64,000 nucleotides of DNA from a virus. Numbering within the stretch: position 1 is the first letter of the stretch; every line of letters starts with the position of its first letter. The DNA is taken from the IMG/VR virus record IMGVR_UViG_3300009068_004979; one strand, given 5' to 3'. The position numbers and the translations under genes were made by a program. Below the pieces are notes generated by a model that was not told where the DNA came from, did not search any database, and was given only the letters and a program-made list of their open reading frames with translations. Shown here in pieces: positions 29,241 through 64,000 of this stretch.

Positions 29241-29278
29241 ATGTGTATATTAAAATATATATTCTTTATTTCAACTAT

Positions 29279-29479: not shown

Positions 29480-29547
29480 ATAGTTATATTATATTATCAT
29501 TATTTAGAATCAAGAAGTTTATTTGCAAACATAAATAATATGGCAGT

Positions 29548-30346: not shown

Positions 30347-30519
30347 ATGGCTTCTACATACCGTGCTTTGAGGTTTACTTTGTTACAGGAAGAGCACCCT
30401 GTGGCTGTTAATTTGCTAAGCTCCTGTTGATATGACTCACGTACCTTTTCGCACAAGGGTATCTCCTTGGGACAAGGTTGAGAGAAATCAAAAAAGTCAT
30501 CGAGAATTTTAGCATCCAT
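30304..30519 (-). CDS. Small CxxC protein, paralog of 32779..33039
   Basis: Start MDAKIL; DFF...P.P......R..Y...E.......CSSC..N..KA.Y. Confidence 0.6.
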   Translation of the reverse strand: MDAKILDDFFDFSQPCPKEIPLCEKVRESYQQELSKLTATGCSSCNKVNLKARYVEAIWKEVVSSLTPKAS

Positions 30520-31381
30520 TTTTAAACCAGTTGTATGTGTGTTGTAGGCCGTCTTGCCAATTATATTTAGGCAGCCAATTAAGTAGCTTCCACGCTTTTT
30601 GATTGCAAACATTTTCATCAAAAGTCTGGTTATGCCGCTGATCAACAAAAACAATTTTAGAATTGCTGCCTGTAATTTTTTTAATGTCTTCAGCCATTTG
30701 AATTGCAGAAACCTTTTCATGTTGTGATAAGTTTATTATTTCATTTCTAGCATTATCAAAGTGTTTAATTGCTAAAGCGCAACCTGTGGCAATATCATCT
30801 ACATGGGTTAATGTTCTGGCCTGCTTGCCGTCGCCATGTATGGTAATATCTTTATCCTGCAATGCTTGTGTGAAAAATACATGCACACCTAGAGCGGACC
30901 TCATGCCTGGTCCATAGGTTGTTGCAAATCTGAGTATAATATATTCCAAATTAAAATTTAATGCATATCCCTGAATAATAATCTCGCCAGCATATTTTGT
31001 ACATGCATATAATTCTGAAGGATTTACTTTTGCATCTTCTGTAGCTTGTTCTTTAATATTGCCGTATGCGCAAATAGTAGAAGCATATATTAATTTTATC
31101 TTGTGTTTAGCACACAAGAAAGCTACGTTATGGGTGCCTTGAATGTTAAAATCGGTACCTTTATATGCGCCATCTATATCTTCCATGGCGTACATATTAG
31201 CTTGAGCCGCAATATGCAGAACAAAATTACAAGATTGAATATGCTGCTCTAGATCTTCTAAATTTAAAACATCGCGACCTAATTTTCTGTCATATTCGAG
31301 TACATTATAGCCAGCTCGTTCAAGCTTGCGTTTTATAGCTGTGCCAATGAATCCTGAGCTGCCTGTTAATAAAATATTCAT
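30509..31381 (-). CDS. NAD-dependent nucleotide-sugar epimerase/dehydratase
   Basis: TGSSGFIG, YACTK (YxxxK), HGDGKQAR. Confidence 0.9.
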   Translation of the reverse strand: MNILLTGSSGFIGTAIKRKLERAGYNVLEYDRKLGRDVLNLEDLEQHIQSCNFVLHIAAQANMYAMEDIDGAYKGTDFNIQGTHNVAFLCAKHKIKLIYASTICAYGNIKEQATEDAKVNPSELYACTKYAGEIIIQGYALNFNLEYIILRFATTYGPGMRSALGVHVFFTQALQDKDITIHGDGKQARTLTHVDDIATGCALAIKHFDNARNEIINLSQHEKVSAIQMAEDIKKITGSNSKIVFVDQRHNQTFDENVCNQKAWKLLNWLPKYNWQDGLQHTYNWFKNGC

Positions 31382-32037
31382 CTTATATCTCGGAGTAGCA
31401 TAAATGCTTCAGCATAAAAAGATTTACACTCTTGTCCACGAGATGCAACCTTCACTAAAACTGCTTCAGGGCTTCTGGAATGTGGTGGTGTCATGCATTC
31501 CATGCTGTAGCATTGCAAAGCTGCCATTTTTTTGTTTACGAGAGATTCAGTCAATACTTCATAAATGTTTGGTACAAATGATGCGCGGTCTGTACTAAAA
31601 GATTGATCACAAGATGATAAAACCTCGCCTACAATAATTTGTTTTGCATAATTACATGTATTGGGTCTGGTAGCTATGGAAACTGCTCTGTAGAGATTTT
31701 TATGATCTTGATGGTTATCAGATAGGTGTGTTGTATACAGAATGTCCGGCTTGTATTGATCTATGCACTCTTCCACTTTGCCAATGAGTTGAAACAGGTC
31801 ATTACACAAGTCTTGATGAGATATTGAGAGAAATTCAAGATCATTGTAGCCTAAGATATCTTTGGCTTTTAATGCATCTTGCAATTGTTTTTTAGCGCGC
31901 TGATGATTGGGAGCTTGGGCGATGGCTACTGATACATGGTGTCCTTGTTGCACCATCTTGCAGATAGTGCCGCCGAACCCTAACACTTCATCATCAGCAT
32001 GAGGTACTAGAAAAAGAATTCTGCTTTGCTGTTTCAT
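31378..32037 (-). CDS. PIG-L/LmbE-family deacetylase
   Basis: PHADDEVLG, HQDH, YAEAF. Confidence 0.9.
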   Translation of the reverse strand: MKQQSRILFLVPHADDEVLGFGGTICKMVQQGHHVSVAIAQAPNHQRAKKQLQDALKAKDILGYNDLEFLSISHQDLCNDLFQLIGKVEECIDQYKPDILYTTHLSDNHQDHKNLYRAVSIATRPNTCNYAKQIIVGEVLSSCDQSFSTDRASFVPNIYEVLTESLVNKKMAALQCYSMECMTPPHSRSPEAVLVKVASRGQECKSFYAEAFMLLRDIR

Positions 32038-32782
32038 ATAACTTGATTCTATTATAGTCATTTTTAAGCGGGTTTTCAACTAATATGGCCAACTGTTCTT
32101 CAAATGATTTAGTATGAATGAATGGCATAAGAGAATAGTGCACCGGGTGTAAAGATATGCCTTGATTGGTTATATCCATGTTAGTTGTGCCTGAAGTCTC
32201 ATCTTTTAGATCAATTAAATTAATCCCATATGCTTTCATTATTTCGCCAACTAGAACATCTTCTCCTTTGTATGTTTCCGGTGTATTATGAAATGTATCA
32301 AAATTATTCAGCGTGATTGTTTTTACTGCCTCATAATCTAAGATATAAAAGCTGCCTTCAGCATATGCATTTTTTGCATCGCGTTTGGAAACATGAAATG
32401 ATTTGTTCTTTATTTTATAATGATGATATGTTGCTGCACGATTGGGCTCATTCTTTTTACCTGCATATTTGACATTCGACAAATTGAGTTGCAGAAACTT
32501 CTCAACATTAACATAGGTATCATCATTAACTTTAACAACGTGTGTGAAGTCACAATGTTGCAGAAGTTTTTGCATGGCCAGATATGTTTTAAGTGGCAAT
32601 TGCTCATAACACTCTTGGAAGTTTTCCAGGTATAAAGAATTTGGTAGATCATTTAACTTATCACCTGAAACAAAGAAAAATGGTATATTGTTTTTAATCA
32701 AATCCTGAATCCAAGTATCCAGAAGGCATTTACACCTGTGCACAGTTTTAGCGCAGGTGTAAATTACGAACACGCATTTCAT
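31994..32782 (-). CDS. GT31-like (Fringe/beta-1,3-galactosyltransferase) glycosyltransferase
   Basis: Y..LPLKT, VKVNDDTYV, YAEGSFYIL, EDVLVG. Confidence 0.75.
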   Translation of the reverse strand: MKCVFVIYTCAKTVHRCKCLLDTWIQDLIKNNIPFFFVSGDKLNDLPNSLYLENFQECYEQLPLKTYLAMQKLLQHCDFTHVVKVNDDTYVNVEKFLQLNLSNVKYAGKKNEPNRAATYHHYKIKNKSFHVSKRDAKNAYAEGSFYILDYEAVKTITLNNFDTFHNTPETYKGEDVLVGEIMKAYGINLIDLKDETSGTTNMDITNQGISLHPVHYSLMPFIHTKSFEEQLAILVENPLKNDYNRIKLYETAKQNSFSSTSC

Positions 32783-33039
32783 TTAATAGACGATATTAAT
32801 TTTTGTATGAAACAGGCCTTGTAGTAATTTACTTCACAAGCATTGCAGTTGCTTCTTTTAATGATTCTTTCTTCTGCTTTAAAATATTCATCACGCAATG
32901 CATCACCATTGGGGAAAATGGAAGGAACAGGTAAGTCTTTATTAAAGAAATCTCTCAGCTCAGAATCATATACATCTGTTTTCCGCTCAATTTCTTTTTC
33001 GAGCTCATCATACTGCTGAAGATTTTCTGTGTCAAGCAT
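32779..33039 (-). CDS. Small CxxC protein, paralog of 30304..30519
   Basis: DFF...PVP......LRDEY...E......CNAC.VN..KA.F. Confidence 0.6.
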   Translation of the reverse strand: MLDTENLQQYDELEKEIERKTDVYDSELRDFFNKDLPVPSIFPNGDALRDEYFKAEERIIKRSNCNACEVNYYKACFIQKLISSIK

Positions 33040-33096
33040 AAAAAGATATTTTAAATATATAGCTCAAAGCTGAAGTTTTGCAACTATATCGTAGAG

Positions 33097-33729
33097 TTAT
33101 AATAAATCCTTAGGGTTCATAGCAAAGCTTACAAATCTTGCATTTTGCCCTGTCAGGCTGGCTCTATGTGGTAAAATTCCGTTAAAAATAAAATAATCAC
33201 CTTTTTTGCTTAAAAGCTTTTCTTCTCTATCAACACTTACAATAAAGTCACCATCTTCTATATCTTCTAATAAGAAGTGTATCATAACAGCATCGTGACC
33301 GTGCCCTTCGTCTTCAAGAACTAGAGCGCCTTGCTTGAAACAAAATATCCAAGCTACAGATAGCCAAGTAGGTAATATTTTTAGAGTATTTGCAAAAAAA
33401 GCTGCATCAGAATAAACATGCATCTTTCCTGCAATTTGTTGCATTTCAGCAGTCTTCAAAGCATAGTTTTGTTCTGGTCCATCTAAAATAAAATTAAATA
33501 ATTCTTCTTTATACCCAGTGCAGCCACACTTCTTGACAGAGCTATACATAAATGGCAGAGAATACATTTTAATATAATCTGTTTGTAAAATTTTATTATA
33601 TTTAGTATGCTGCTCAATTGGCAAATTTTGCAAAAAATCATAGTAATCTTTACATGCGGCTTGTACTAGCTCATCTTTAATCTGTACTAAATTTGGAAAC
33701 GTTTCAATAGATAAAAAATTTGTTTTCAC
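33097..33729 (-). CDS. Cupin/double-stranded beta-helix oxygenase-like protein
   Basis: HGH...F.G..PH.A. Confidence 0.55.
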   Translation of the reverse strand: MKTNFLSIETFPNLVQIKDELVQAACKDYYDFLQNLPIEQHTKYNKILQTDYIKMYSLPFMYSSVKKCGCTGYKEELFNFILDGPEQNYALKTAEMQQIAGKMHVYSDAAFFANTLKILPTWLSVAWIFCFKQGALVLEDEGHGHDAVMIHFLLEDIEDGDFIVSVDREEKLLSKKGDYFIFNGILPHRASLTGQNARFVSFAMNPKDLL

Positions 33730-33734
33730 TACTA

Positions 33735-34346
33735 TTAATTAATACTATTGTTAAGCAAATCTATACGCGCAGCGAAAACAATTAAACATACATATCCACC
33801 GATGCATCTAGCGCTATGAAGTAATCTCCCATCTAGCGAAAAAAAATGACCTAATTTGCTTGCTTTGTATTCATGATTGTTGCAGTGTACTTGTAAATAT
33901 CCATTGTGCTCAATATCATTAAGAAGAATAAAGGTATGCATTTCGGCTTCATCATGTATGTGACTAGGTATATGTGAGTTTGCTTTTATATAGAGTAATG
34001 TAGTATTAGTAATACAATCAATACTATTAGCTAGTTTAGATATGTTTGGAAAATAAAGCGAACTATCATATGCATATATACTTTGATCAAAACTCGCATA
34101 AGCTTGTCGACATGCATCATCTTGGCATGAAATTTCGGGATCAAAGATTATATTGCATTCAATAGCTTTACTTGCAGGGTCTTTAGAATGCAGTCTAACA
34201 AAATACATGTTAGTCAGTTCATTCTTTATAAATTCATCATGTCTGTTTTTCTCTTTTTGCGGCAAGTTTATTAAGAATCTGCTTACTTCTTCTTGAATTA
34301 ATAATAAGCTTTTATCAGGCAAAAAATGCGTATTGGTATAAATCAT
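33735..34346 (-). CDS. Cupin/double-stranded beta-helix oxygenase-like protein
   Basis: IPSHIH...LDG..LHSA. Confidence 0.6.
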   Translation of the reverse strand: MIYTNTHFLPDKSLLLIQEEVSRFLINLPQKEKNRHDEFIKNELTNMYFVRLHSKDPASKAIECNIIFDPEISCQDDACRQAYASFDQSIYAYDSSLYFPNISKLANSIDCITNTTLLYIKANSHIPSHIHDEAEMHTFILLNDIEHNGYLQVHCNNHEYKASKLGHFFSLDGRLLHSARCIGGYVCLIVFAARIDLLNNSIN

Positions 34347-34351
34347 ATTAA

Positions 34352-35005
34352 TTAGAATTCAGATCCCACAACCAATAACGTACGGTTTTTTTTGCCTCGC
34401 TCTATTGCTATATGCTCATATGAAGAATCAAATATAAGCAGGGGTTCCTCAGGACATAGGTGCACAGATTTGCCAAGTGCTTCAATTTGCATATATTCAT
34501 CTGATTCAGTTAAATTAAAAGATGACAAATAATATTGAGGATGGTCATGCGGATCAAAATGTGTACCAGGCTTAAATTCAATAAACATTGCTTGCCACAA
34601 TTTGGGTACATGTTGTGTTACTAGTGCATAAGATTCTTTAAAGAGATAAGAAATGTCTTCATCAGAGAAATAATTAAAATCAAACATTTTTTTAAGTGTT
34701 ACATGATGCTTAATATAAGAGCGCTCTTCTGGTGTCATCTGGTATGTAGGAGCACAAATACCATTATAATATCCAGTATCTTCTTTAAATTTTCTTGTGG
34801 GGTTCTTAGTGAAAAACGGTACAGATAATGCTTTAATTAAAGGGCAACTTAGCATATTGTTTAAATGCTCTGCTGCTACCGGATGCGCTGTTTGTACAGT
34901 GTGTTTGTAATTCTCATACTCGCTCAAGAATACCTGTTTATGTTGTAGCAGTGTTAAGGCCCAGTACAAATTTTCAGGTACATTTTCTCTAGTATATAAT
35001 ATCAT
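34352..35005 (-). CDS. Aspartyl/asparaginyl beta-hydroxylase-like oxygenase
   Basis: PGT...PHDH...IFDSSYEH.A...R..L. Confidence 0.7.
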   Translation of the reverse strand: MILYTRENVPENLYWALTLLQHKQVFLSEYENYKHTVQTAHPVAAEHLNNMLSCPLIKALSVPFFTKNPTRKFKEDTGYYNGICAPTYQMTPEERSYIKHHVTLKKMFDFNYFSDEDISYLFKESYALVTQHVPKLWQAMFIEFKPGTHFDPHDHPQYYLSSFNLTESDEYMQIEALGKSVHLCPEEPLLIFDSSYEHIAIERGKKNRTLLVVGSEF

Positions 35006-35757
35006 AAGGCCTCTCTACAATGAAGATATTTTAAATATATAGCTCTAAGCCGTAGTTTCTCAACTCTGCCTATATAATTTTCAATGTATCCTTTTTTAGT
35101 CGTTCCCCATGGCTTATACTCAATAAAATGTAAAATCTTTATATCTTTAAAATCTATTCTGCTTAGTAGATCTAGTGTGGTATTATAGCTTATTGGCATG
35201 GGTGTTATTTTATCTGCAAAGAATAAATTGAGTGGTATTTGATTGCCACTAAATTTTTTTGTCTGAACAATATTCAAAAGCTCTTCTCTTATGCTTTCAT
35301 TTAAATGGCTCTTGCCTATGACCATAACACCGGCGTTGAACCCAATTTGCTCATTATTATATACTAGATTGTGCTTATATTCGTTACAACTTATATTAAA
35401 ATCACCTTCAAAATTAAAAATATCTGAAATACTATTGAGTATTATAGTATCACTATCTAGGTACAAGATTTTGTCGTATTTCTTGAGTTTGAATATATCA
35501 AATTTGCATACTGGTGAAATGCCCCAGTCCCGCGAAAAATATTTGCTATATTCCTTATATTCTGATATGCGCTTAAAAATAATATTGTGATTTTTATTAA
35601 CTGGTACTGCTTTAAAATCTAAATCATCTGTGTGCATAATTACAATATCACAGCTGAGCTGTCCGTTAATATATAAACTCTTTAATGAGCAGATTAGAGA
35701 GTTAAAATAATTTGAATTAACTATGTATACAACTGCTGTTTTCATGGTAATATTCAT
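35002..35757 (-). CDS. Glycosyltransferase family 8-like
   Basis: YDKILYLDSD, FNAGVMV, Q..LN, ILHF...KPW. Confidence 0.85.
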   Translation of the reverse strand: MNITMKTAVVYIVNSNYFNSLICSLKSLYINGQLSCDIVIMHTDDLDFKAVPVNKNHNIIFKRISEYKEYSKYFSRDWGISPVCKFDIFKLKKYDKILYLDSDTIILNSISDIFNFEGDFNISCNEYKHNLVYNNEQIGFNAGVMVIGKSHLNESIREELLNIVQTKKFSGNQIPLNLFFADKITPMPISYNTTLDLLSRIDFKDIKILHFIEYKPWGTTKKGYIENYIGRVEKLRLRAIYLKYLHCREAL

Positions 35758-36556
35758 TTACAAAGCTGGCTTGCAAGTCAGCCGGTAACGTTGCAGAAAA
35801 ATCTGTTATCATATTTTTATAGACCAAATGCTGCACTCGATTCATGGGTTGCTTGGCTCTTATTGCTTTTCTTATATTTAAAAATGTATTTTGATTGATG
35901 ATGCGCTTAGAAAGCATGCATGTATAATTATAAGCAGCGATATTGACTTCATGTGGCGGTTCAACGCTATATTTGTCAGCACCATAATAATAAAGACTTT
36001 TATCTAAGAAAGATATTTTTTTATTTTGCATAATGAACTCAAGCCATAGCAGATAATCTTGATATCGAGAAAGACTCTCCGGATACCATCCTAACTCTTC
36101 TACCACTTGTTTTTTATACATCACATTATGCTCAATATGATTAAAAAAGATCATTTTAAAAGGTAAGAATTCTAGTCTTGTCAATTGTTTGTGTTGCGAT
36201 TTAGTTGAAAAATTTGAGTAAACTAAATCACTATGATCTTGCTGTAATTTAGTAAGAAATAATTCTAGTCTGTCTGGACCGGAGATATTATCTGAATCTT
36301 GTCTTAGGATGTAGGTGCCTCTGCATAGCTTTAATCCTATATTCAGAGCTCTTGATATACCCTGATTATATGGCAACGTATGAATGATAATTCTAGGATC
36401 AGTATATTGTTTAAGTATTTGTGTTGTAGTGCTATTGCTGCCATCATTAATAATAATAAACTCGAAATCACTATAGGACTGATTTACAATAGATTCAATG
36501 CTCAGTTGAAGATTGTCTTTGCTTTCATTAAATACAGGCATTAGTACGGACACCAT
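35717..36556 (-). CDS. Glycosyltransferase family 2
   Basis: VSVLMPVFN, IINDGS, ALN.G, RQDSD, QDY.LW. Confidence 0.9.
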   Translation of the reverse strand: MVSVLMPVFNESKDNLQLSIESIVNQSYSDFEFIIINDGSNSTTTQILKQYTDPRIIIHTLPYNQGISRALNIGLKLCRGTYILRQDSDNISGPDRLELFLTKLQQDHSDLVYSNFSTKSQHKQLTRLEFLPFKMIFFNHIEHNVMYKKQVVEELGWYPESLSRYQDYLLWLEFIMQNKKISFLDKSLYYYGADKYSVEPPHEVNIAAYNYTCMLSKRIINQNTFLNIRKAIRAKQPMNRVQHLVYKNMITDFSATLPADLQASFVNEYYHENSSCIHS

Positions 36557-36584
36557 ACAAGCATTTAAGTAGGAATAATATATT

Positions 36585-37400
36585 ATGCAACGCAAACTAG
36601 CCTTTGTATCAACTTTAAATAGGGACTACCTTCTAGGGTTCAAGGTATTTTTATATAGCATATTGCAGCATAATCCAAATTTAGATTACGACTATATTAT
36701 TTTTAACGAGGGAGACATAACGCAAGAGGATGTTGCAGAGCTACGTAAAATATATAGTAAAATTATTCTTAAAGAAATTGATACTACTTTTTATAGTGAC
36801 TGCAAATTTCAAGCCTATAGAGCTTGGAAAATAAACCCTGCTCATAGATTGGAAATATTCAAATTAACTGAATATGATAAAATCATATTCTTTGACGCAG
36901 ATATGCTTTGCACTGGTAGTATAGCAGAACTCTTTACTATGAGTCATGATTTTGCTGGCGTTGCACACCCTATGCATGATGCAGGAGATATTTATAACTA
37001 TGGCTATTTCAAGCAAAATAAAGGGTTTAATGGTGGATTAATGGTTGTAGATAAGAAATTTTTAACTGAAAAGACAGTTGATGATTTAAAGAAAATAATA
37101 AGCGGTTATACTTGGTTTGGTAACCAAGCCAGTTTAAACATATATTTTAAAGATACAGTAACATACATTGCAAACAAATATTTTCTCTCCACACCATTTA
37201 TGAATTTTAAAAATATTAAAGAATCGGTAATATGGCATTTTGTTGGAGATAAAAAACCGTGGCATGGTGTTCCTTTTGATGGAAAAAATATTGACGTAAT
37301 GCATATAAAGTATAACAAGCATGTGCTTGGATCTACCGCTTTTCATGTATTAATGAAAGTGCAATCAGTGTACGAGAAGTATCTTGCTAAAGTTTTGTAA
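36585..37400 (+). CDS. Glycosyltransferase family 8-like
   Basis: YDKIIFFDAD, FNGGLMV, NQASLN, HFVG.KKPW. Confidence 0.85.
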   Translation: MQRKLAFVSTLNRDYLLGFKVFLYSILQHNPNLDYDYIIFNEGDITQEDVAELRKIYSKIILKEIDTTFYSDCKFQAYRAWKINPAHRLEIFKLTEYDKIIFFDADMLCTGSIAELFTMSHDFAGVAHPMHDAGDIYNYGYFKQNKGFNGGLMVVDKKFLTEKTVDDLKKIISGYTWFGNQASLNIYFKDTVTYIANKYFLSTPFMNFKNIKESVIWHFVGDKKPWHGVPFDGKNIDVMHIKYNKHVLGSTAFHVLMKVQSVYEKYLAKVL

Positions 37401-38069
37401 TAAACTGCTTCTGCCAAATCCTTCGGTGTTTACTTGTAATTTTCTACTAGTAATGTAGCTATCTATGTGATTAAAGAGTGTTTTATCATGCGTATTGCTT
37501 TCCAGGGTGAATGGCGTAAAAAATATTTTTTTAAAAAATAGTAGATCAAAATTAACTCCATTGACAAAGCAACGTCTTATGAAATCACTATATGGTGTCG
37601 CCACACCATCTTTCATTAATGATTCATCAAAACCTCGCATTTGATCAAATACTTGTTTACCGATAACTAGCAATTTTTCTGTTATTTCTGTTATTTTATT
37701 AGAAACAAGTATATTATCTGGTTTTGTTTTAATTAATTTAGATATGAAATATGCATTTAATATGGTATGATTTGTATTTAAGATAAGAACTTCTCCTTGT
37801 GCAGCTTTGCAAAGTAAATTAAGAGGATGCGAGGCTTGAAAGCGCTGCGGTCTTTCATTTTGATAAAAATTAACCTTTCCGCTTTCTATTGCTTTTGCGT
37901 AATGTTTCTTAATAATTTCATCTACATTTTTTTTGTAAGGGTAATTTAAAATCACTAGCTCATAATTTAAACCAGCCATTTCAAGTAATTTTATATTTGT
38001 ATCAATAGCGGTTTTAGATTGCTCAAGAGTATCATCATAAAATACACAGTAAGAATATTTGGGTTTCAT
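37365..38069 (-). CDS. Divergent GT-A fold protein (GT2/GT7-like, DxD missing)
   Basis: N...K.AQGE.L...; F..M.GFDE...D...R. Confidence 0.5.
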   Translation of the reverse strand: MKPKYSYCVFYDDTLEQSKTAIDTNIKLLEMAGLNYELVILNYPYKKNVDEIIKKHYAKAIESGKVNFYQNERPQRFQASHPLNLLCKAAQGEVLILNTNHTILNAYFISKLIKTKPDNILVSNKITEITEKLLVIGKQVFDQMRGFDESLMKDGVATPYSDFIRRCFVNGVNFDLLFFKKIFFTPFTLESNTHDKTLFNHIDSYITSRKLQVNTEGFGRSSLLQNFSKILLVH

Positions 38070-39448: not shown

Positions 39449-39502
39449 ATAATTAATTATGACATAAATTGAAAATAGCATTTTCTTTATTAAATCATTT
39501 AA

Positions 39503-40654: not shown

Positions 40655-40933
40655 TTTTACAGTTCCTATTGTATAGTTTTCTGAAAGCTCGTAAATAGAA
40701 TTTCCTATATAAATTCCTTTATCAAGATCATAATATGTGAATCCGCTGTTGTTTTTTTCTGATTCATTATATTTTATAATGAATATGTTTTTATTTAATA
40801 TACTTCTCTCGTAGGTGCCTTTTGAATATGGCATGCCTTTGTTATTATGAGTCAAAAATGTGCCGTCGTTATTTAAAACTGTAACATATTCATTGGGCTT
40901 ACCTTCATCTGAATGCAATTCTATATAGTTCAT
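40646..40933 (-). CDS. Hypothetical beta-rich protein
   Basis: 95-aa ORF between radical SAM and GT genes. Confidence 0.5.
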   Translation of the reverse strand: MNYIELHSDEGKPNEYVTVLNNDGTFLTHNNKGMPYSKGTYERSILNKNIFIIKYNESEKNNSGFTYYDLDKGIYIGNSIYELSENYTIGTVKLK

Positions 40934-46274: not shown

Positions 46275-46307
46275 ACAAAAATTTATACAGATATTCTAAG
46301 AAATCAA

Positions 46308-48454: not shown

Positions 48455-48459
48455 GATGT

Positions 48460-50112: not shown

Positions 50113-50113
50113 A

Positions 50114-50593: not shown

Positions 50594-50626
50594 TTAAATT
50601 ATTTATTAAAATTGAGCGTTTATCAA

Positions 50627-55602: not shown

Positions 55603-55623
55603 AACTTTATTTATCCAAAGATT

Positions 55624-56301
55624 CTAAATAGCAGCTGTGAGACCTTCTATGGAAGTTGCATATTTAAACAATGTTACATATTCTGGATCAGTTACTTCTA
55701 TGACTTTCAAGTCTTTATTGAAACTCTTGGAGAGCTGCAATGAATCTAACAAGTGATAATCCCCAAATTCAAACAATGAATCATGATACATGTCAAAGGT
55801 AATATTGAATATGTTTACAACAGAACTGCCATTGATTACAGATACAGATGGATTGAATGTGGTTTTAATTTGGTTGGATGGCCAATAATCATGTGCAGGT
55901 GAGGTGCTTTTTGGATCTGCAGCATTGGTTGTGGATGCAATGCCTCGTTCCACACTCCTAGATGTTCCGTCACCAAAGTCATACACTATTTTTAACAATG
56001 GATAATATTTTGTATCCACAGCAGATGGTACAAATGTGATGGTGTATGGTCCTTTGAATGGACCTGCTGTTAAAAATGTGAGTGTGTTGGTTATGATGTA
56101 TCCCCATGGGAAGAAATTGCCTCCTTGTGCAGTGAATGGGTATACAAATGTGCCAGTTGTGGTGGTGAATCGGCTTCCATCTGCTGATATAGGGTAAGTA
56201 AAATTAGTGCCTAGTACTGGATCCACAAAGATATAATGATTGATTAAATCAGGTGTACCATATGTTTGAGTAGTGGATAATACTATGGAATATGTTTTCA
56301 C
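55624..56301 (-). CDS. Virion protein with PKD-like domain
   Basis: YDFGDGT...P.H.Y; TAAGTA-N6-GTG upstream. Confidence 0.6.
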   Translation of the reverse strand: MKTYSIVLSTTQTYGTPDLINHYIFVDPVLGTNFTYPISADGSRFTTTTGTFVYPFTAQGGNFFPWGYIITNTLTFLTAGPFKGPYTITFVPSAVDTKYYPLLKIVYDFGDGTSRSVERGIASTTNAADPKSTSPAHDYWPSNQIKTTFNPSVSVINGSSVVNIFNITFDMYHDSLFEFGDYHLLDSLQLSKSFNKDLKVIEVTDPEYVTLFKYATSIEGLTAAI

Positions 56302-56313
56302 TTTAATTACTTA

Positions 56314-58746
56314 TCAAGGCAATCCCAGGCTGCTGCCTATGGTGCGTTTGGTTAAATCATATAGCCGGTTCACTTGAAAATCTGATACAGCTGTGAGAGA
56401 TAACAAGCCAGACATGAAGATGGTGTTGTTTGAATTGGTATAGTTTATTGTTCTGGGGTCATACACTATGCCTGCTGCCAAAGTCAGATTGGACGGTTGA
56501 GGGTATCCATATGTATCTTGTGGTAGCACTGAACCTATGGGATATATGGTTTGTGTGATGGTGTTGTTAATATAATATTTGCATGCAGAAAGAGAGCTGG
56601 CAGGTGTGTAGAAACAGAAGAATGGATTGTTATCATAATAGCTTCGCAATCCAGCTGGGCAAAATACATTTAAATCTGTCCATGTGCGAATCCATTCACC
56701 TGGGTATTTGCCATTGAAGTCACTGTAGAAATTGCCTAGTCCTAAGGTACCAGCACCAAAAGGTGTATTCACATGTAATCCTGCCTCATGACCGATATAT
56801 CCATAAGCTGGTGCTGCATATGATCCAGGTATGCGACCTGCTACTATCTTGAGCATGTTGCCGTTATCTCCTGGACCGCCTGGGTTACTATACCAGCTAC
56901 CATTTAAGTTTACAATGCCAAAAGATGCTATTCCATACTGACCAGCACTCTGTGGGTAAGTGTTGTTGTTATAATCAATCAAATCTACCCAGGTGCCACT
57001 GGTGAACAGCAATCCTTGATCAGTCCATTGAGGATAAGGAATATAAACTTCTGGTTTGTTGAAGCGAGAGGCATATTTGTTATAATTTTTAGCTACTTCC
57101 CATTGTGTTAATGGTTGATTGTAAACTTCTGCTAAGAAAAATTCGCATTCTTGAGCATGAGAACCACCAATATAAAAGAATTGAATGCCTTGATCATACG
57201 GAATAACAAATTTACCCACTTGTGAAACGGTTAATACACCGTTAAGATAAAGGCCCGCACAAACATATGGATTGGCAGTAGAATAATTTGCAGATGGTGT
57301 CACTGTTATGGTGACGTTAATAGGCTCATTCAGAGGCAAGGGATCCGGTGTAACGACATTACTAATAGTTCCACCGCTTTGATTGGTATTAAAATATAAT
57401 CTGCCTTTAAGAGAAGCCCCCGCACCATCGCCGAACAGAAAGCAGCGATACCCGCTTATTAAGTAATTTTCTGAAGAAGTGATCGAAGTGCCATAAGCAT
57501 CCGGGTAAGCGCTCAACTGTAGCCAGAAATTAATAGTGAAGTTGCTGTTTAATCCAAGCCCTGTCCAGGTGGCTCCTGCAGGCGCACCAGTGCCGTTAGG
57601 AACACCGTATATAATAGGATTATAATCATTACCAGCACCACTCAACACATGCAATGCACCGCCATAAGCTGTGGTGTACACATACCCAGCTGTATTCCAA
57701 ACATTAGCATAATATGGCAAGTTTTTTAAATTGTTAACTCTCCACGGTTCACTCGGTTTGTAGCTTGATAGATTGGCAATGTCAATGTAGTATACTCTAT
57801 TATCGGCAGGCACTTGGTAATCATACCAGCTGCTCATGATACCATTGGAAGTGGTGAGACCGCCTAGACTGTATACTGTTTTGCCAGACCCTGCATTAAA
57901 CGGTGTGGCCATGGGCCAGCAAATGAAACTGTCCCATAAGTCAAGAGCCTTTAACCCCACAACAAATTCATTGATGGGCACAATGTCAGTGGCACCACTG
58001 GCATTTACAAACGCTTGAGCATCAGGATCATAGGGACCAGCAGATGTTGCATCTGTTTTGAATGCATCAATGTTGAAATTCTGAACTGCAAAATTTGTGC
58101 CTGTGACATTCTTAGAGAAGCTCAAGCACGGCTTAACGCTCACAGGAAAATCATATGGTATAATTGTTTCAATGTAGTTGTGTGAGGCGTTCCAGCCACC
58201 TAAATCTGTAGCTGGTTTTATATCTACCAGTAAACGCTGACTAAAATCAGCCAATCGAACTCTCACTCGGTAGAAATCAGGCTCTGCTGTGGTAGATTGA
58301 TATAAAGAAATAGGTACACTGTATGCAGTACCTGCCAAGTTTTCTGTGCGGTAAAAGGTGTTGTAGCTGGACAGATAGTCTGCTCTTAAACAAATAGTAT
58401 TGGGTACTGCATCAGCATAGCCATTGATATGATCTGCGCTTGTAGCATAGTTGCCTGTGATATCAAATCCAATGCCTAGTGCACCACCGGCAATGCCATA
58501 ATAAAAGACTGCGCTACTAGCTGATGTGCCAGTAAAGTAAGCATAGTTTAATGCCGAGCCAGGTCCACCGCCACTCAATGCATCATTGTTGGCGTTGACA
58601 AAAAATAAATTGAACCCTTCACTACCAGAGGCAGGTGCTCCGTAGCAAGCATAATCAAAAGTTACGACTATGTCCTTGGATGTGTCTAGCTTGTCTTGCA
58701 GATAAATGGCATTGCTTCTGCTTTTGTTTGTGAGTGTTTCAGCCAT
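56314..58746 (-). CDS. Virion protein with L-type lectin and LamG domains
   Basis: GSEGF..F...GG.G..L.Y...LGIGFD; FTINFW...LYLNG...VYN..LT..EV..NY. Confidence 0.7.
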   Translation of the reverse strand: MAETLTNKSRSNAIYLQDKLDTSKDIVVTFDYACYGAPASGSEGFNLFFVNANNDALSGGGPGSALNYAYFTGTSASSAVFYYGIAGGALGIGFDITGNYATSADHINGYADAVPNTICLRADYLSSYNTFYRTENLAGTAYSVPISLYQSTTAEPDFYRVRVRLADFSQRLLVDIKPATDLGGWNASHNYIETIIPYDFPVSVKPCLSFSKNVTGTNFAVQNFNIDAFKTDATSAGPYDPDAQAFVNASGATDIVPINEFVVGLKALDLWDSFICWPMATPFNAGSGKTVYSLGGLTTSNGIMSSWYDYQVPADNRVYYIDIANLSSYKPSEPWRVNNLKNLPYYANVWNTAGYVYTTAYGGALHVLSGAGNDYNPIIYGVPNGTGAPAGATWTGLGLNSNFTINFWLQLSAYPDAYGTSITSSENYLISGYRCFLFGDGAGASLKGRLYFNTNQSGGTISNVVTPDPLPLNEPINVTITVTPSANYSTANPYVCAGLYLNGVLTVSQVGKFVIPYDQGIQFFYIGGSHAQECEFFLAEVYNQPLTQWEVAKNYNKYASRFNKPEVYIPYPQWTDQGLLFTSGTWVDLIDYNNNTYPQSAGQYGIASFGIVNLNGSWYSNPGGPGDNGNMLKIVAGRIPGSYAAPAYGYIGHEAGLHVNTPFGAGTLGLGNFYSDFNGKYPGEWIRTWTDLNVFCPAGLRSYYDNNPFFCFYTPASSLSACKYYINNTITQTIYPIGSVLPQDTYGYPQPSNLTLAAGIVYDPRTINYTNSNNTIFMSGLLSLTAVSDFQVNRLYDLTKRTIGSSLGLP

Positions 58747-58747
58747 A

Positions 58748-61700
58748 TTAGAAAATAAACTCCCCTGCAGCTATGCTGCCACCACTGCCTAACAGTGTGT
58801 ATGTGGCAAAATTTGCACCTGTAACTGAGTTACTAAAGTTTTCTGAATAAGCATATAAATCTGGTTTGAGCATGTTGCTAATAATATTTGTTAAGCGGCC
58901 ATTAAAATATTTAAATGATGTATTGAAGATGTAGAACATGCCAGAAGCATCTTTGCCCATGTAAGAAAGGTTGTAGCGACCTGTTTCATCAGAATAATTT
59001 AAGATGGGTTTCTCAATTTCTACTATGTTAATATCATAGCCAGTGCCAGAAAGTGTAAAGGCAGAGAGTGTGTTAAATGTTAATGCAGCTGTAGTCACAC
59101 GTGGATACAATTGAGCAGTACCAAATGTATCTAAATTAACAACATATATTTGTGGGTATATGATCTTGTAATTTGTGGCACTATATTCTCGGAACAATGT
59201 TGTCTTGCAGAATATTAACTCTTTTTCTTGTTCATTAAACCATACAGTAGATGTTTTTTCAAATGCTCTGTATGGTCCTTTGTAGATGAAGTTTTCATTG
59301 TTAACAGAGCTTTTAACAGTATTAGAAGCATAATTAAATTTGATCTGATCAAAAATTAAGTAATTTTCTGTTTCAATTTGAATTGTGTCATAATACACAT
59401 CAAAATCAATTACATGGTTATTAATATCATCGCGAATTTCTGGTGTATACTTTACAAATATGGCAGATAGAGCTGAAGACACTGGCTGCACCACAGTGCC
59501 ATTTGAATTGCGATAATAGAAATCACCATAATTCACATTGCGTGTATCATAAATTGTTTGACGCGTAGCTATACCACTTAGATTATCGAGAACGCGTGTT
59601 GTTCTATTTGCAATGTGAATATTTGCAAAGTTTGATTTTTCTATATATGGTATAACGACATTTGTATTAATATCACCACAAGGTGATGCACTATTAATAG
59701 CCATGTAACTGCCATTGTATGGTGTAACTGCAGAAGCAGGTGGTACAAAAGTGAAGTTACCTGCAAAAGCAAAGTTTGCAACAAAATTTGGTGATAATGG
59801 ACTCACACCACCATCTGCTAATTCTGTATAGTACAGCGCTAGGTTAGCAGGATCAAATCCTGGATCGTCACTTGATGAATCTGGAAATAACCCACTATTG
59901 GCATTTACAAACGTTTGCCCGTCTTTAATATTACAATTAAAAGTTACAGTTACAACACTTGGGCAAAAAGATTCTGGTTGCAAGTTATAAGATTGAATAC
60001 TATATGGATTTCCAGAGAGTGTAAATTCTGGTGGTCCTTGATTGTAGAAGTATGTTGATAGTGGTGATACTCCTGTGAGGGAATCTGCATGCGTCCACCA
60101 TCCTGTGCCTGGTGGTATATTGTTAGTAGTTTTTAATGTAACTCCAGAGTATTCTTTTGCAGGATTAACTTCGTTCCAATCAAAATTATAACCTGATACT
60201 GAGTCATAAAATGAATACCCATCCAATATGAGGCAGTATAGCAATCGATTTTCAGCTATGGCTTCAGGTGTATTAACAAGTGTTTTGAGAGGATCAACAT
60301 CTTTATATAGACCATATTCATTGCCATACACATCGGTTTTATATTGAACCATGGTCTTGTTGACTGATAGTAAGGTATTAATACGATTATCAATAGGAAA
60401 TTCATTAGATGGAATAATTGGATATACATCTTTGTTGGCCCATAATTCACGCTTTTCAGGGCTAAAAAAGTCTTGTGGGTCTTCATAGCGTGCCAAGCCA
60501 AAATTAGAATAATCAAGAGATTGCTCTCTGGACTGATATGCTCTAAAAATTTGATACAATGGATCAGTATCAGCATCACCAAAGCGATAGCTATTGGATT
60601 CGTCAATCTTGTTAAAATAGCTTTGATCTGCAAATACTAGCGGTGTTGTGTATTCTGTTTTTGTATTACCTGAAATATTACCAAACTTGTTAGGGTCAGG
60701 AAAAATATAAATTGTATTAGGTGTAAGTCTACTGGCAGAAACATTGGCAACTGAACTAAAGTTTGTAAAATTAATTAATCCTATTTTATCAGGCTTAAAA
60801 AACAAACCTATTTGTTTTGCTGTCTTTAAGAAATCTGTGCTTGGGACTGCAGCAACTGTTGGGTAGCGTTTATTTAGATAATTTGCAAAGTTGGATTGTG
60901 CTGTAAATAGCACACCGGATACAACATCATAAACTGTGGAGCCAGTTGATACATAATAAAAATCTGTACCCAGATACTTTTCTGTTAAAGTTTTTTCTAG
61001 ATTTAATTTTAAATTTTCGACACTTCTATTATTAACTAGATTAATGTAATCACTATCTTTAAGATATCCTAGCTGATTTGAATTTGGTTCAACTGTAATA
61101 GAAAAATTATTGTCACCCAGCTCTATGGCAAAAAATGGATAGGATGTAATTGCATTTGTAATGCTAGTATTAAAATCCAAGGACAAATAAGGATCTATGC
61201 CATATGTATTAGCCTCAAAATATGTGGCGCGGTCACCGGATGTTGCGTCATAAAGTGTTGCAGATAGTGCAGGATTTATATCAAAGTAATTGGGGTATGT
61301 ATCATATAAATCTTCTACATTAATAATAATATTATTACGAATATCAGAAAGAGATAGATTTAATGTTCGTATTAAATCCGTTAAATCTTCTGTTTCTAAC
61401 GATTTTGAAATTTCATTATATATTGTTTTTTCTATACCGAAATTGGAGCCTTTGAGATTGTATCTTAGATTGGCTGTTTTTACATCGTCACGCAGAGTGC
61501 TAAAATAGATGCAAATGTCTTTGATCTTTTGCGCGAAAAATGGTATAGCTATGGCTAGATCACGGGGGTTGTTATAATCAAGATTTTTTAAATAACGTCT
61601 TTCATCAACTGTTGTATAGTTTAAAACTATTTCATTTATAAGGGTTGTATACAGGTATTTTGTGTAGTCAACCGCAAAAGGTTGTTTGATATTTTTAGCA

Positions 61701-61891
61701 GCATACCAAGCAGTTATGTATGTTTGATATCGTCTAAGAAAATCTTCTACATTGGTAAACAATCGCTCTGAATACTTTACCCACTCTGTAAATGATAGTG
61801 GAGCAATGCGATCTGTAGCTGACACACTGCCAATTTGTGTTGTTATGGAGCTTTCCAGATTACCAGCTATAAATCTTGTTGATTCAGGCAT
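58748..61891 (-). CDS. Large virion structural (baseplate-region) protein
   Basis: 1047 aa, Asn/Tyr/Thr-rich, in the structural operon; TAAATA-N5-ATG upstream. Confidence 0.6.
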   Translation of the reverse strand: MPESTRFIAGNLESSITTQIGSVSATDRIAPLSFTEWVKYSERLFTNVEDFLRRYQTYITAWYAAKNIKQPFAVDYTKYLYTTLINEIVLNYTTVDERRYLKNLDYNNPRDLAIAIPFFAQKIKDICIYFSTLRDDVKTANLRYNLKGSNFGIEKTIYNEISKSLETEDLTDLIRTLNLSLSDIRNNIIINVEDLYDTYPNYFDINPALSATLYDATSGDRATYFEANTYGIDPYLSLDFNTSITNAITSYPFFAIELGDNNFSITVEPNSNQLGYLKDSDYINLVNNRSVENLKLNLEKTLTEKYLGTDFYYVSTGSTVYDVVSGVLFTAQSNFANYLNKRYPTVAAVPSTDFLKTAKQIGLFFKPDKIGLINFTNFSSVANVSASRLTPNTIYIFPDPNKFGNISGNTKTEYTTPLVFADQSYFNKIDESNSYRFGDADTDPLYQIFRAYQSREQSLDYSNFGLARYEDPQDFFSPEKRELWANKDVYPIIPSNEFPIDNRINTLLSVNKTMVQYKTDVYGNEYGLYKDVDPLKTLVNTPEAIAENRLLYCLILDGYSFYDSVSGYNFDWNEVNPAKEYSGVTLKTTNNIPPGTGWWTHADSLTGVSPLSTYFYNQGPPEFTLSGNPYSIQSYNLQPESFCPSVVTVTFNCNIKDGQTFVNANSGLFPDSSSDDPGFDPANLALYYTELADGGVSPLSPNFVANFAFAGNFTFVPPASAVTPYNGSYMAINSASPCGDINTNVVIPYIEKSNFANIHIANRTTRVLDNLSGIATRQTIYDTRNVNYGDFYYRNSNGTVVQPVSSALSAIFVKYTPEIRDDINNHVIDFDVYYDTIQIETENYLIFDQIKFNYASNTVKSSVNNENFIYKGPYRAFEKTSTVWFNEQEKELIFCKTTLFREYSATNYKIIYPQIYVVNLDTFGTAQLYPRVTTAALTFNTLSAFTLSGTGYDINIVEIEKPILNYSDETGRYNLSYMGKDASGMFYIFNTSFKYFNGRLTNIISNMLKPDLYAYSENFSNSVTGANFATYTLLGSGGSIAAGEFIF

Positions 61892-61905
61892 TCAAATATT
61901 TATTG

Positions 61906-63999
61906 TTAGAAAAAGTTACTACTAGAGCTAACACTATTATAAACAATATCATTAGCGCTTAAGAATAGTCTTAATCCTTTGCTTAGTTCGTAACTTATTA
62001 GGTTTTGCATGATTCCATTGTTGTCTTGCCATGAGCCAAAAGAGCTAACACTTGGATCCAATGTGTTTAACGGGTCAGTCCAGTTAATTATATTGTCATA
62101 AAAGCTGTTTTCATAAGTTGTATTATATTGATAAAACTTATAATAGTTCTTTATATCTGTACCAGTTAATGACTTAGGTGCTACTAGGCCCCAGCCCCAG
62201 TCATATGCATATGTTGATAGTGGAAGAGTTTGACCAATAGCGTAGCCGCTAATGGCTGCAAAATTTACAACCTGATATTGTTCGGAGAAGGTTTCATATG
62301 CCACAATGGGTATACCAGAAGATATGATGCTTGTTTCTGTGGATAATTCAGCGCCTTTATTTTTACCATAATTAGAATTGGCTACAGTACCACGTTTGTT
62401 AAAGTCGAGATTGTATTTGTTTTGCTCGCCCCATAGTAGCTTGTGTTTTATGGAAAGAATATCTACCAAGCGGCGTAGCTGAGGTGGAAATGGGTAGTTA
62501 TACAACTCAAACTGTATGGATAGTTCTTTGCACATGGAAAGCAATGAATCAAGATTTGCTTTATCCGGATCAGATTTATTGCTTACAAAATTAGCAATCT
62601 TTTCATATATTGTTTTGCCTAGTTCATATGGCTTAGCTGTATTACCACCTACAATTGTTCCCAGAAAATTATTAAAGAATATATTCTTTTCTTGTAAAAC
62701 ATCTTGATAGCGTAATGAGTTGTAATAACCGCGCGCATCAAAATCTTCATTTATTTTTGTAATGTTATACTCTCCTAAATATGGATAAATATTAAAGTAA
62801 CTTGATTCACCTGTTAAGGTACGTATTACTGTGAATGGAATCATGTACTTGTTGATCCATCTGAATCCAATCCAATCACCATAAGCTAAAAATGCACGCT
62901 CTTGGAAGCTTGAGAGCGGATAAGCGGAAAGCTCTGGGGCAAATTGTAGTGGTACTTGATCAATATCTGCTGCAGCTGTTGGTGGAGGCATGAGTGTATC
63001 AAGAAAATACATATTTTGATCAAAATTATTAATTGTCCAGATATAATTTGATGTGTCACATGTCAAACCACCAAAGCTATTAATGTAGCTACTTTGATTT
63101 AATCCTGAGCCCACAGTAAAGTTTGTCATGTTTGTTTGTGTGGCAGATGCACCATCAATGCGTGTAATCGTCTCTCTATCTTGTGCTACCCATGCATTTT
63201 GAGCGCCGTCGATAGTAATATTACCAGTGCGTTTGAACCCTGAAAGAGGAAATCCTGTAGCTAGCACACCATTTTCATCAAACTTATACACATAATCATT
63301 ACACCCTGTTAATGTGTATGCACTTGTATTAAGGTTGATTGCAGTAACCCACACATTACGATTTCTATCAACAACAATTTCTGCGGGTGAAGTTATAAAT
63401 GGAAACGGAATAACTGTTAATAGTGCCCCGTTAGGATCATACTTGGCTAAGAAATTTGAAATTGGATGTGTGTAAGAGATCCAGATATTATTGTTTAAAT
63501 CAGTATCAATGCATGATGGTAGAATAGTGCCTTCACCTGCATACCCACTCAAAGAAGATATATTATAGTCAGCACTCAAATAATAATATATGTTAGTTAG
63601 ATTAGACTCTATAGCTGCTTTTACATAACCACCTTCACCGTCAAATTTTATCGCAGATCCACTATCAAACAGTGTTATCCACAGATCACTATTACCATCA
63701 AGCACAATGCTACTAGGCGCCGCACTGGATAATTCTGGTGATAATAAGTTTCTGTACTGTATTTCATTGCCGCTTAAGACAGGAAATGCTGATAGGTAGA
63801 ATGATGATAAAATATTACCATACACATCCAGCTTGATGAGTGTATCATTTGTTGCATCTGATACCCATGCTTTGTAATCATTGCCAAAGCCTGCACCTGA
63901 TGGCGCAACTGCTATGGCGTAAACATTGCGATTTGGATCGCTTGGAAAGAATGACTGTAGTGCTGAGATATTAACTGAAATTGTTCCTAAACATGAATC
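61906..63999 (-). CDS. Beta-propeller baseplate-wedge-like protein, 5'-partial
   Basis: Repeated D.xx.N.W(I/V) blades; frame stays open to the window end. Confidence 0.65.
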   Translation of the reverse strand, partial: DSCLGTISVNISALQSFFPSDPNRNVYAIAVAPSGAGFGNDYKAWVSDATNDTLIKLDVYGNILSSFYLSAFPVLSGNEIQYRNLLSPELSSAAPSSIVLDGNSDLWITLFDSGSAIKFDGEGGYVKAAIESNLTNIYYYLSADYNISSLSGYAGEGTILPSCIDTDLNNNIWISYTHPISNFLAKYDPNGALLTVIPFPFITSPAEIVVDRNRNVWVTAINLNTSAYTLTGCNDYVYKFDENGVLATGFPLSGFKRTGNITIDGAQNAWVAQDRETITRIDGASATQTNMTNFTVGSGLNQSSYINSFGGLTCDTSNYIWTINNFDQNMYFLDTLMPPPTAAADIDQVPLQFAPELSAYPLSSFQERAFLAYGDWIGFRWINKYMIPFTVIRTLTGESSYFNIYPYLGEYNITKINEDFDARGYYNSLRYQDVLQEKNIFFNNFLGTIVGGNTAKPYELGKTIYEKIANFVSNKSDPDKANLDSLLSMCKELSIQFELYNYPFPPQLRRLVDILSIKHKLLWGEQNKYNLDFNKRGTVANSNYGKNKGAELSTETSIISSGIPIVAYETFSEQYQVVNFAAISGYAIGQTLPLSTYAYDWGWGLVAPKSLTGTDIKNYYKFYQYNTTYENSFYDNIINWTDPLNTLDPSVSSFGSWQDNNGIMQNLISYELSKGLRLFLSANDIVYNSVSSSSNFF

Positions 64000-64000
64000 A

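Follow-up and report, generated by a model that had tools for sequence, protein, structure and literature searches.

Does a phage that carries a large block of sugar-processing genes beside its tail-fibre genes use them to glycosylate its own virion, and is the acceptor site spelled out in its structural proteins? The question is raised by a 64,000-nt stretch of the IMG/VR virus record IMGVR_UViG_3300009068_004979 (the window, meaning this stretch at its full length), in which a block of putative glycan-building genes at 30509-46274 (the island) adjoins an operon of fibre and baseplate genes. The initial annotation proposed that a hydrophobic-(S/T)-(A/G) tripeptide in the structural proteins is a selected sequon for O-glycosylation by the island enzymes. 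Judged by its gene families, the island is a genuine accessory cassette of predicted soluble enzymes, at least six of them glycosyltransferases. The tripeptide excess is also genuine but modest and is best explained by protein fold, and a link between the two is unsupported. The joint reading that we put first, a sugar cassette at a variable hotspot together with a motif excess that is a fold signature and no sequon read by the island enzymes, seems to us almost as likely to be right as wrong.

The window comes from an uncultured T4-like phage that is deeply divergent and whose lineage has hundreds of metagenomic relatives. When 50,697 records of cultured phages were searched at the DNA and protein levels, no match emerged for the fibre genes at 48460-56301 or for the 58748 protein. 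Metagenomes, however, yielded at least 120 homologues of the 1047-aa protein encoded at 58748-61891, with 44-91% identity, and the family of this protein was found at at least 78 IMG/VR loci in an alignment-based scan. Four near-complete genomes and the downstream regions of seven more relatives were compared (G numbers below). The 61906 homologue of G002 has a gp6-like gene (phrog_219) immediately upstream, and the nearest cultured relatives of that gene's product are cyanomyoviruses, with 24-30% identity; the sheath, terminase, portal, capsid and neck genes of the relatives are recognisable against PHROGs and T4.

Enzymes of the island and their variable locus

Families were assigned to the island open reading frames (ORFs) by Pfam, NCBIfam and the ESM Atlas, and PHROGs and the PDB were also searched. 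The predicted features are as follows.

30509-31381, minus strand: NAD-dependent NDP (nucleoside diphosphate)-sugar epimerase/dehydratase (PF01370, E 6e-40; under every NCBIfam equivalog cut-off)
31378-32079, minus strand: PIG-L/LmbE-type de-N-acetylase (PF02585, 4e-20; nearest NCBIfam family BshB1, below cut-off)
31994-32782, minus strand: GT31/Fringe-like GT-A glycosyltransferase (PF01762, 2.4e-11; PF02434, 1e-4; NDD motif at residue 86)
33043-33085, minus strand, with a second copy at 35023-35065: 43-nt repeat, copies 88% identical
33097-33729 and 33735-34346, minus strand: two paralogous ORFs of no recognised family (mutual identity 25%, E 7e-6)
34352-35005, minus strand: dioxygenase-like protein of the Asp/Asn-beta-hydroxylase/LpxO/OlsC type (PF05118, 4e-7, above cut-off; HFD at residue 149)
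35002-35757, minus strand: GT8 glycosyltransferase (PF01501, 1.7e-18; DSD motif)
35717-36595, minus strand: GT2 glycosyltransferase (PF00535, 1.3e-30; DSD motif)
36585-37400, plus strand: second GT8 glycosyltransferase (PF01501, 1.1e-21; 30% identity to the first)
37365-38069, minus strand: possible divergent GT-A enzyme, weakly GT2-like (PF00535 at E 0.006 only, below cut-off)
38066-39481, minus strand: AsnB-like glutamine amidotransferase (GATase_7, 2e-17, plus Asn_synthase)
39503-40654, plus strand: N-terminal-twitch radical SAM enzyme 1 (NF033640 score 202 bits, cut-off 170; CxxxCxxC at residue 117)
40932-41873, plus strand: GT-B fold glycosyltransferase (Atlas score 0.97, template modelling (TM) score 0.80 to GT1/GT4 clusters; phrog_33989)
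41863-43056, plus strand: N-terminal-twitch radical SAM enzyme 2 (Radical_SAM and SPASM matches; 30% identity to enzyme 1)
43780-45336, minus strand: N-terminal-twitch radical SAM enzyme 3, extended at the N terminus by about 120 residues (NF033640 score 367 bits, cut-off 170)
45333-46274, minus strand: 313-aa ORF, the last gene on the fibre-operon strand (without a match in Pfam, PHROGs or the Atlas)

These assignments, together with the gene order, bear out the earlier description of a glycan-building island directly abutting the fibre operon. The enzymes listed at that time were recovered (epimerase, PIG-L protein, GT31-like enzyme, two GT8, GT2, AsnB-like protein, GT-B and three radical SAM enzymes), except that the divergent GT-A reached only the E value of 0.006. 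The three oxygenases shrink to one, since the 34352 product alone has a family match; its nearest NCBIfam family is OlsC, far below cut-off. The 33097 and 33735 products have no Pfam, PHROG or PDB match and no likeness to the 34352 protein, and contain HxH/HxD strings only. The DXD, HxD, CxxxCxxC and N-terminal Cys motifs are intact across the island enzymes. In the AsnB-like protein, the true start is likely at Met12-Cys13, a dipeptide read at residue 12 of the ORF, which would expose a catalytic N-terminal Cys.

Solved relatives were found for some of the glycosyltransferases. The best for the first GT8 are 5gvv (deposited merely as 'Glycosyl transferase family 8'), the Skp1 alpha-galactosyltransferase 6mw5, WbbM and glycogenin, and for the GT2 they are chondroitin synthase, GalT1 5hea and SpsA. 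The matches are weak and local, with a best E value of 6e-8 for the GT8 and values of 2e-4 to 8e-3 for the Skp1 enzyme and glycogenin, and WbbM, chondroitin synthase and SpsA score about as well as the Skp1 enzyme, glycogenin and GalT1. The nearest NCBIfam family of the second GT8 is lipopolysaccharide (LPS) 3-alpha-galactosyltransferase, below cut-off, and no solved relative of the GT31-like enzyme was found by sequence. Two of the three radical SAM paralogues were scanned with the N_Twi_rSAM model NF033640, and both exceeded its cut-off (202 and 367 bits). In this architecture the twitch/SPASM domain precedes the core (SPASM at residues 7-67, then Radical_SAM, with CxxxCxxC). Bacterial homologues of these enzymes come mainly from Bacteroidota (Reichenbachiella, Cytophagales) and Bdellovibrionota, often in tandem with radical SAM/SPASM genes, and flagellins make up 2 of the 93 neighbouring ORFs.

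No multi-span hydrophobic protein was found among the island ORFs, and neither a flippase, a polymerase nor an initiating transferase of the membrane (phosphoglycosyl-transferase) type, nor any such Pfam family. Without a transporter or flippase, a polymerase and an initiating transferase, the island is no self-sufficient Wzx/Wzy or ABC polysaccharide cluster. A Pfam search of the window's island also revealed no methyltransferase.

The position of the island was then considered relative to the genes that flank it and to other features of the window.

46308-48454, minus strand: FG-GAP/He_PIG adhesin-like gene (FG-GAP_2 matches in both of two frames)
48460-50112, minus strand: distal tail fibre with an Mtd_N head and an S74 chaperone end (PF13884, PF18454, many tail-fibre PHROGs)
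50114-63999, minus strand: outer baseplate/fibre operon of 50114, 50627, 52243, 55624, 56314, 58748 and 61906 (per-protein counts, homologues)
16248-16548, plus strand: 63-bp tandem repeat in gene 13904, 4.9 copies (Tandem Repeats Finder score 350), each 21-aa unit carrying ISA and LTA

In all relatives that reach far enough, a variable stretch is bounded by the distal fibre gene on one side and by homologues of the small-gene cluster (26640-30346) on the other; in each of the 11 relatives that keep this locus the island adjoins that fibre gene. Its size ranges from 3.1 to 18 kb. The smallest islands (G003, G034) contain a lysozyme gene and small ORFs but no glycosyltransferase. Among the 88 island ORFs of seven relatives, Pfam recorded seven radical SAM proteins, six GT8, four GATase_7 amidotransferases, three each of DegT, PhyH, methyltransferases, GT31 and DXD-type glycosyltransferases (Gly_transf_sug), two each of PIG-L and Asp_Arg_Hydrox, and one APS kinase; by these predicted families, the relatives fill the hotspot from one recurring enzyme toolkit. 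Homologues of the AsnB-like protein are present in the islands of G005, G002, G042 and G019. G042 also has GT8 and GT31 homologues, and no homologue of the window's radical SAM enzymes was seen there. Island genes common to the relatives share just 25-43% identity, except for one epimerase at 52%, and the flanking structural genes mostly share 40-60%.

The lineage has two genome architectures. In G003, G004, G023, G029 and G034, the entire segment bounded by the 56314 and 26640 homologues, with the island inside it, is inverted with respect to the 58748 gene; the window, G002, G005, G019 and G042 show the other orientation. The place of the island beside the distal fibre gene is unchanged despite the inversion. 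The relatives also have a second sugar cluster with GMD-like, GT2, GT11, GT10, GT-B (Glyco_trans_1_2) and AAA_28 genes, which in G002 (103.9-113.8 kb) is located no more than about 3 kb upstream of the neck, portal and capsid genes. This cluster resembles the fucosyltransferase clusters of cyanomyoviruses. The adhesin-like gene that closes the fibre operon is split between two frames that overlap at 47756-47987, and its G002 homologue is one 772-aa ORF.

Size, distribution and conservation of the tripeptide

Is the tripeptide in excess, and where? In 12 structural proteins of the window (8111 aa), [LIVFY]-[ST]-[AG] was observed 129 times versus 74.7 times in composition-preserving shuffles (z 6.5), so the enrichment claimed by the initial annotation is confirmed; block shuffles of 10-40 residues gave expectations of 78-82. 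Without the repeat protein 13904, 96 sites were counted versus 62 (z 4.5). The ratios for the island enzymes (1.19) and for all other ORFs (1.09) correspond to chance. In a 7-class alphabet, the motif ranks at the top of 343 class tripeptides in the window tail set (z 4.8), largely via a [ST][AG] dipeptide excess of 1.35, and it is Ser-biased (2.05 for Ser versus 1.37 for Thr). Motifs of the [S/T]-G-[S/T] type reach only 1.4-2.3 fold in the window. An origin from a repeated DNA word was ruled out by the finding of 108 distinct 9-mers at 126 sites; the diverse codons indicate a feature of the protein level.

The excess is not pervasive in structural proteins of unrelated folds, as had been suggested. 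It is concentrated in four to five large outer baseplate and fibre proteins, which within the fibre operon are those of 52243, 58748 and 61906, whereas 7 of the 12 structural proteins are at chance (z at most 1.4) and 11951 is marginal (z 2.1). Across 42 T4-homologous core virion proteins of four relatives (capsid, portal, sheath, tube, neck), the pooled count was 108 versus 98, a ratio of 1.10, with no excess over chance in the capsid, portal and tube proteins or in most sheath proteins. The repeats of 13904 do carry motif sites, although about 10 of the 33 are contributed by the single 63-bp tandem repeat. The 75-aa 21103 protein, singled out earlier for its three LTA, has 3 sites versus 0.8 (p 0.04), which is not significant among 83 ORFs. 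In the 56314 homologues, 46 sites versus 13 in G002 and 40 versus 13 in G005 fall within leucine-rich-repeat-like stretches (N-x-L-S/T-A/G-L). These homologues (G002, 36033-40175; G005, 41140-45246) are about 1370 aa long, with long stretches of this kind as judged from sequence contexts, and the 810-aa version in the window is without them.

Outside the lineage, no excess was found in the baseplate and fibre proteins of T4 (0.87) or the tail proteins of Vibrio phage K452 (about 0.95). The giant baseplate proteins of cyanophages Syn19 and P-SSM7 reach 1.3-1.4, and the P-SSM7 wedge protein reaches 1.7. When the giant post-gp6 proteins of these two phages (more than 6,300 aa) were pooled with the P-SSM7 wedge protein, S-[GA]-x-T occurred at 2.25 times chance (z 6.0). 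Genes annotated as 2OG (2-oxoglutarate)-Fe(II) oxygenases lie upstream of and beside the baseplate wedge genes of P-SSM7 (NC_015290, 34.3-51.4 kb), and in Syn19 a gene with a PhyH domain (PF05721) lies some 9 kb upstream of gp25/gp6.

These data raise a second question: does the motif behave as a modification site or as a part of the fold? In the 58748 family (121 members), there are on average 11.8 sites per protein versus 5.9 expected; eight conserved columns account for 5.5 of them, and the remaining 6.3 correspond to chance. In the 61906 family (57 members), nine core columns account for 6.8 of 17.5 sites, and the remainder of 10.8 compares with 8.2 expected. For these two families, which are the best sampled, all or most of the excess can be attributed to 8-9 positions of ancient conservation. 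The number of conserved motif columns exceeds that of every permuted motif (8-9 versus 0-6). The Ser/Thr of the motif has a conservation of 0.61, versus 0.53 (p 0.22) and 0.59 (p 0.60) for Ser/Thr with only the hydrophobic or only the small neighbour, and across all such comparisons with matched Ser/Thr the p values range from 0.15 to 0.6, indicating no extra conservation. At the core sites of the 58748 family, Gly/Ala is usually about as conserved as the hydroxyl residue, and Gly is better conserved at two of the eight (324, 947); at site 947, Ser alternates with F/Y/L. The known bacterial sequons D-[ST]-[AILVMT] (Bacteroidetes) and N-x-S/T are not enriched.

A predicted model was obtained for the C-terminal 697 residues of 61906 that are encoded in the window, with a predicted local distance difference test (pLDDT) value of 69.8. 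Residues of about 25-375 form a six-bladed NHL-type beta-propeller (Foldseek E 3e-12, TM 0.60-0.69), and the motif sites are not at equivalent blade positions.

If the island enzymes read the motif, its frequency would be expected to follow island content, and the evidence for this is mixed. Island size and motif ratio are weakly correlated (Spearman 0.56, p 0.09, n=10, not corrected for phylogeny). However, the ratio in shared tail proteins is 1.36-2.05 across all twelve genomes, and it is 1.74 (z 4.8) in G034, which has no glycosyltransferase at the locus. G001-G005 all have GT8 or GT2 genes somewhere in the genome; in G034, a search limited to GT8 found none. The idea that the tripeptide is a selected sequon tied to the island is thus unsupported, because its Ser/Thr is no more conserved than matched Ser/Thr, the excess sits in inherited columns and in leucine-rich or tandem repeats, and it is retained in G034 and shared with cyanophages.

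The acceptor of the cassette

How can both observations be accommodated? According to the reading outlined at the beginning, the cassette would assemble a strain-specific, heavily tailored oligosaccharide in the cytoplasm, on an acceptor that does not need export machinery, and the motif excess would reflect conserved turn, strand-end and helix-cap positions, the tandem repeat and, in the relatives, leucine-rich repeats. Our best guess for the acceptor, offered tentatively, is the outer virion proteins of the phage itself; host envelope precursors come next and are possible rather than probable. A cytoplasmic protein acceptor is favoured by the fact that the enzymes all appear soluble. For the virion, in addition, the relatives of the GT8 enzyme include cytoplasmic protein glycosylators (the Skp1 alpha-galactosyltransferase and glycogenin, both weak matches), the GT2 matches GalT1, both sugar clusters adjoin virion modules, and mycobacteriophages set a precedent.

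Several observations weigh against this reading. No acceptor of the cassette was identified, the nearest named families of the island enzymes are of LPS, exopolysaccharide (EPS) and teichoic type (all below cut-off), and glycan clusters are not where the bacterial homologues of the radical SAM enzymes lie. Promoter-like elements point the same way. A TAAATA box precedes 15 non-island genes by 11-16 nt, three of them in the fibre operon, but it was found before no island ORF, which fits poorly with co-regulation with the late structural genes. At least two island genes lie behind a sigma70-like repeat instead: the copies of the 43-nt repeat, with TTGCAA-N16-TATATA, are directly upstream of the start codons of 32779 and 34352. 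Scanned for sigma70 promoters in general, the island did not exceed shuffled sequences.

Other adverse points concern the motif as a fold signature. At the core sites of the 58748 family, the hydroxyl is at least 95% conserved at five of eight and Ser and Thr interchange at three, as would also fit a modification site. The same can be said of the absence of a [ST][GA] excess in T4 and K452 and its presence in the glycosyltransferase-rich cyanomyoviruses and in this lineage. In the 61906 model, two of the ten sites outside low-confidence segments are inside strands, and the rest are at a strand end, in inter-strand turns, at helix starts or in coil (secondary structure only). Burial in strand cores, which the initial annotation had named as speaking against a sequon, is not what this model shows; the placement counts for the fold reading as well, since turns and helix caps suit a Ser/Thr with a small residue after it. 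The quality of the models is itself a weakness: the AlphaFold model of 58748 (pLDDT 48.7) was too poor to be used, and its fold matches are meaningless.

Could the soluble transferases nevertheless O-glycosylate the hydrophobic-(S/T)-(A/G) motif, or its shorter Ser/Thr-Gly/Ala core, on outer virion proteins, with a glycan built by the island? The top rank of the Ser-biased motif among class tripeptides, its restriction to outer baseplate and fibre proteins, the surplus of conserved columns over permuted motifs, the phage distribution of the excess and the location of modelled sites mostly outside strands would all be expected in that case. We nevertheless consider it decidedly unlikely. The motif Ser/Thr shows no extra conservation, one core Ser position tolerates F/Y/L, the non-conserved sites of the 58748 family are at chance, repeats inflate the counts, and the capsid, tube and most sheath proteins have no excess. 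Moreover, the excess persists where the locus has no glycosyltransferase, the effect is merely 1.5-2 fold, and no initiating protein O-glycosyltransferase was recognised in the island. A version only slightly less improbable has soluble phage transferases adding O-glycans, in the cytoplasm, to outer baseplate and fibre proteins at turn sites with conserved Ser/Thr-Gly/Ala, with the swappable cassette setting a strain-specific glycan coat, perhaps likewise in glycosyltransferase-rich cyanomyoviruses. Still harder to sustain, and in our view highly improbable, is sugar hypermodification of the phage DNA, as in the 5-hydroxymethylcytosine (5hmC) clusters. Phage glycosyltransferases derived from LPS or teichoic acid enzymes do add mono- to trisaccharides to 5hmC, and some of their clusters lie beside structural genes (bioRxiv 10.1101/2023.12.21.572611). 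However, neither a thymidylate-synthase-type hydroxymethylase (PF00303) nor a Tet/JBP dioxygenase (PF12851; this search had no positive control) was found in five relatives, the island of the window has no methyltransferase, and it holds far more tailoring enzymes than the known DNA-sugar clusters need.

The proposal that the cassette remodels host envelope glycans during infection (LPS, O-antigen, capsule or lipid-linked intermediates), with the host providing the initiation and export steps, is unlikely but deserves serious attention. Its enzymes have their nearest families in LPS 3-alpha-galactosyltransferase, EpsE/TuaG/WcaA-type GT2, OlsC/LpxO-type hydroxylase and EPS-associated amidotransferases, and cyanomyoviruses with up to 13 glycosyltransferases have been read in this way (PMC12801897). 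The lack of a late-type box before the island genes, with two of them behind the sigma70-like repeat, and the hypervariability of the locus, which recalls surface-glycan loci, are in line with it. On the other side, all NCBIfam matches to these families are far below the cut-offs, a flippase, a polymerase, a ligase and a membrane-type initiating transferase are all missing from the island, and what a lytic phage would gain is unproven even for cyanophages. We rate as improbable a division into two unrelated modules, with sugar genes at 30509-39481 and radical SAM genes at 39503-46274 that would mature a peptide or virion protein by cross-links or epimerisation. The neighbours of the bacterial homologues are mainly further radical SAM/SPASM genes, and their 25 commonest families do not include a glycosyltransferase; G042 has part of the sugar set without a visible homologue of these radical SAM enzymes, and the island includes small ORFs of 86 and 95 aa. 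Yet nothing resembling a precursor peptide was identified, the islands of relatives repeatedly combine radical SAM with GT8 genes, and the GT-B gene, which overlaps the start of the radical SAM 2 gene, is apparently translationally coupled to it.

Other genes of the window and comparison with known systems

The remainder of the window contains a full-length phage tmRNA (transfer-messenger RNA) at 17403-17816, minus strand (Rfam RF00023, 102 bits against a gathering score of 47), for which ARAGORN predicts an unusually long tag of 33 residues ending in LELV. Eleven tRNA genes are on the minus strand at 4883-4957, 19927-22025 (an array of nine, enclosing an HNH endonuclease gene at 21339-21944) and 25902-25974; the ORFs at 4770-5249, 19624-20319 and 20781-21044 are probably spurious because tRNA genes overlap them. 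The large subunit of class I ribonucleotide reductase (22569-24826, plus strand) is divided into two overlapping ORFs of 435 and 321 aa with a junction at 23861-23876, and in G002 and G005 it is a single ORF of 752-754 aa. The split could be a frameshift, an assembly error or recoding.

The wider relevance of these results is twofold. Large aquatic T4-like phages often carry many glycosyltransferases with an unsettled target, and a lineage whose exchangeable sugar cassette keeps a single position next to the receptor-binding fibre offers a clean comparative and experimental system for finding it. A 1.5-2 fold tripeptide excess in tail proteins can come from beta-propeller turns, helix caps, and leucine-rich and tandem repeats, and similar sequon calls need conservation and fold controls before acceptance.

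Among known systems, the clusters that modify phage DNA with sugars share with the island LPS-like glycosyltransferases in an accessory cluster, in some cases beside structural genes. They need a cytosine methyltransferase and a Tet-type dioxygenase, or a hydroxymethylase (Pyle et al., bioRxiv 10.1101/2023.12.21.572611), and hydroxymethylase and Tet genes are what the above searches of five relatives failed to find. In mycobacteriophages, phage glycosyltransferases reportedly O-glycosylate the virion by a cytoplasmic route, with glycans on the C-terminal ends of capsid and tail-tube subunits (Freeman et al. 2023, as described in PMC12619734). Phage-encoded glycosyltransferases near structural genes are common to both; unlike there, the capsid and tube homologues of our relatives are without motif excess (the window itself does not extend to the capsid and tube genes), and the phage of the window is known from genes alone. 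The Skp1 alpha-galactosyltransferase, glycogenin and streptococcal GalT1 are among the few solved relatives of the island GT8 and GT2. In the Skp1 route a hydroxylase acts alongside GT2 and GT8 steps, but in contrast to the Skp1 and streptococcal systems, no serine-rich repeat or Skp1-like acceptor was seen here. The NF033640 family, whose cut-off two window paralogues pass, has no assigned substrate, and its bacterial members lie beside radical SAM genes rather than glycosyltransferases.

The closest parallel is provided by the T4-like cyanomyoviruses P-SSM2, S-SCSM1 and S-SCSM2R, which carry glycosyltransferase clusters of the cell-wall/LPS type with unproven function (PMC12801897). There too, a T4-like phage holds many soluble glycosyltransferases and NDP-sugar epimerases in accessory regions, and the GMD-like, GT2, GT11, GT10 and GT-B cluster of our relatives resembles the cyanophage ones. 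The window differs in adding three N-twitch radical SAM, AsnB-like, PIG-L and hydroxylase-type enzymes and in having a defined hotspot beside the fibre gene. The island thus belongs with the accessory glycosyltransferase clusters of large aquatic T4-like phages.

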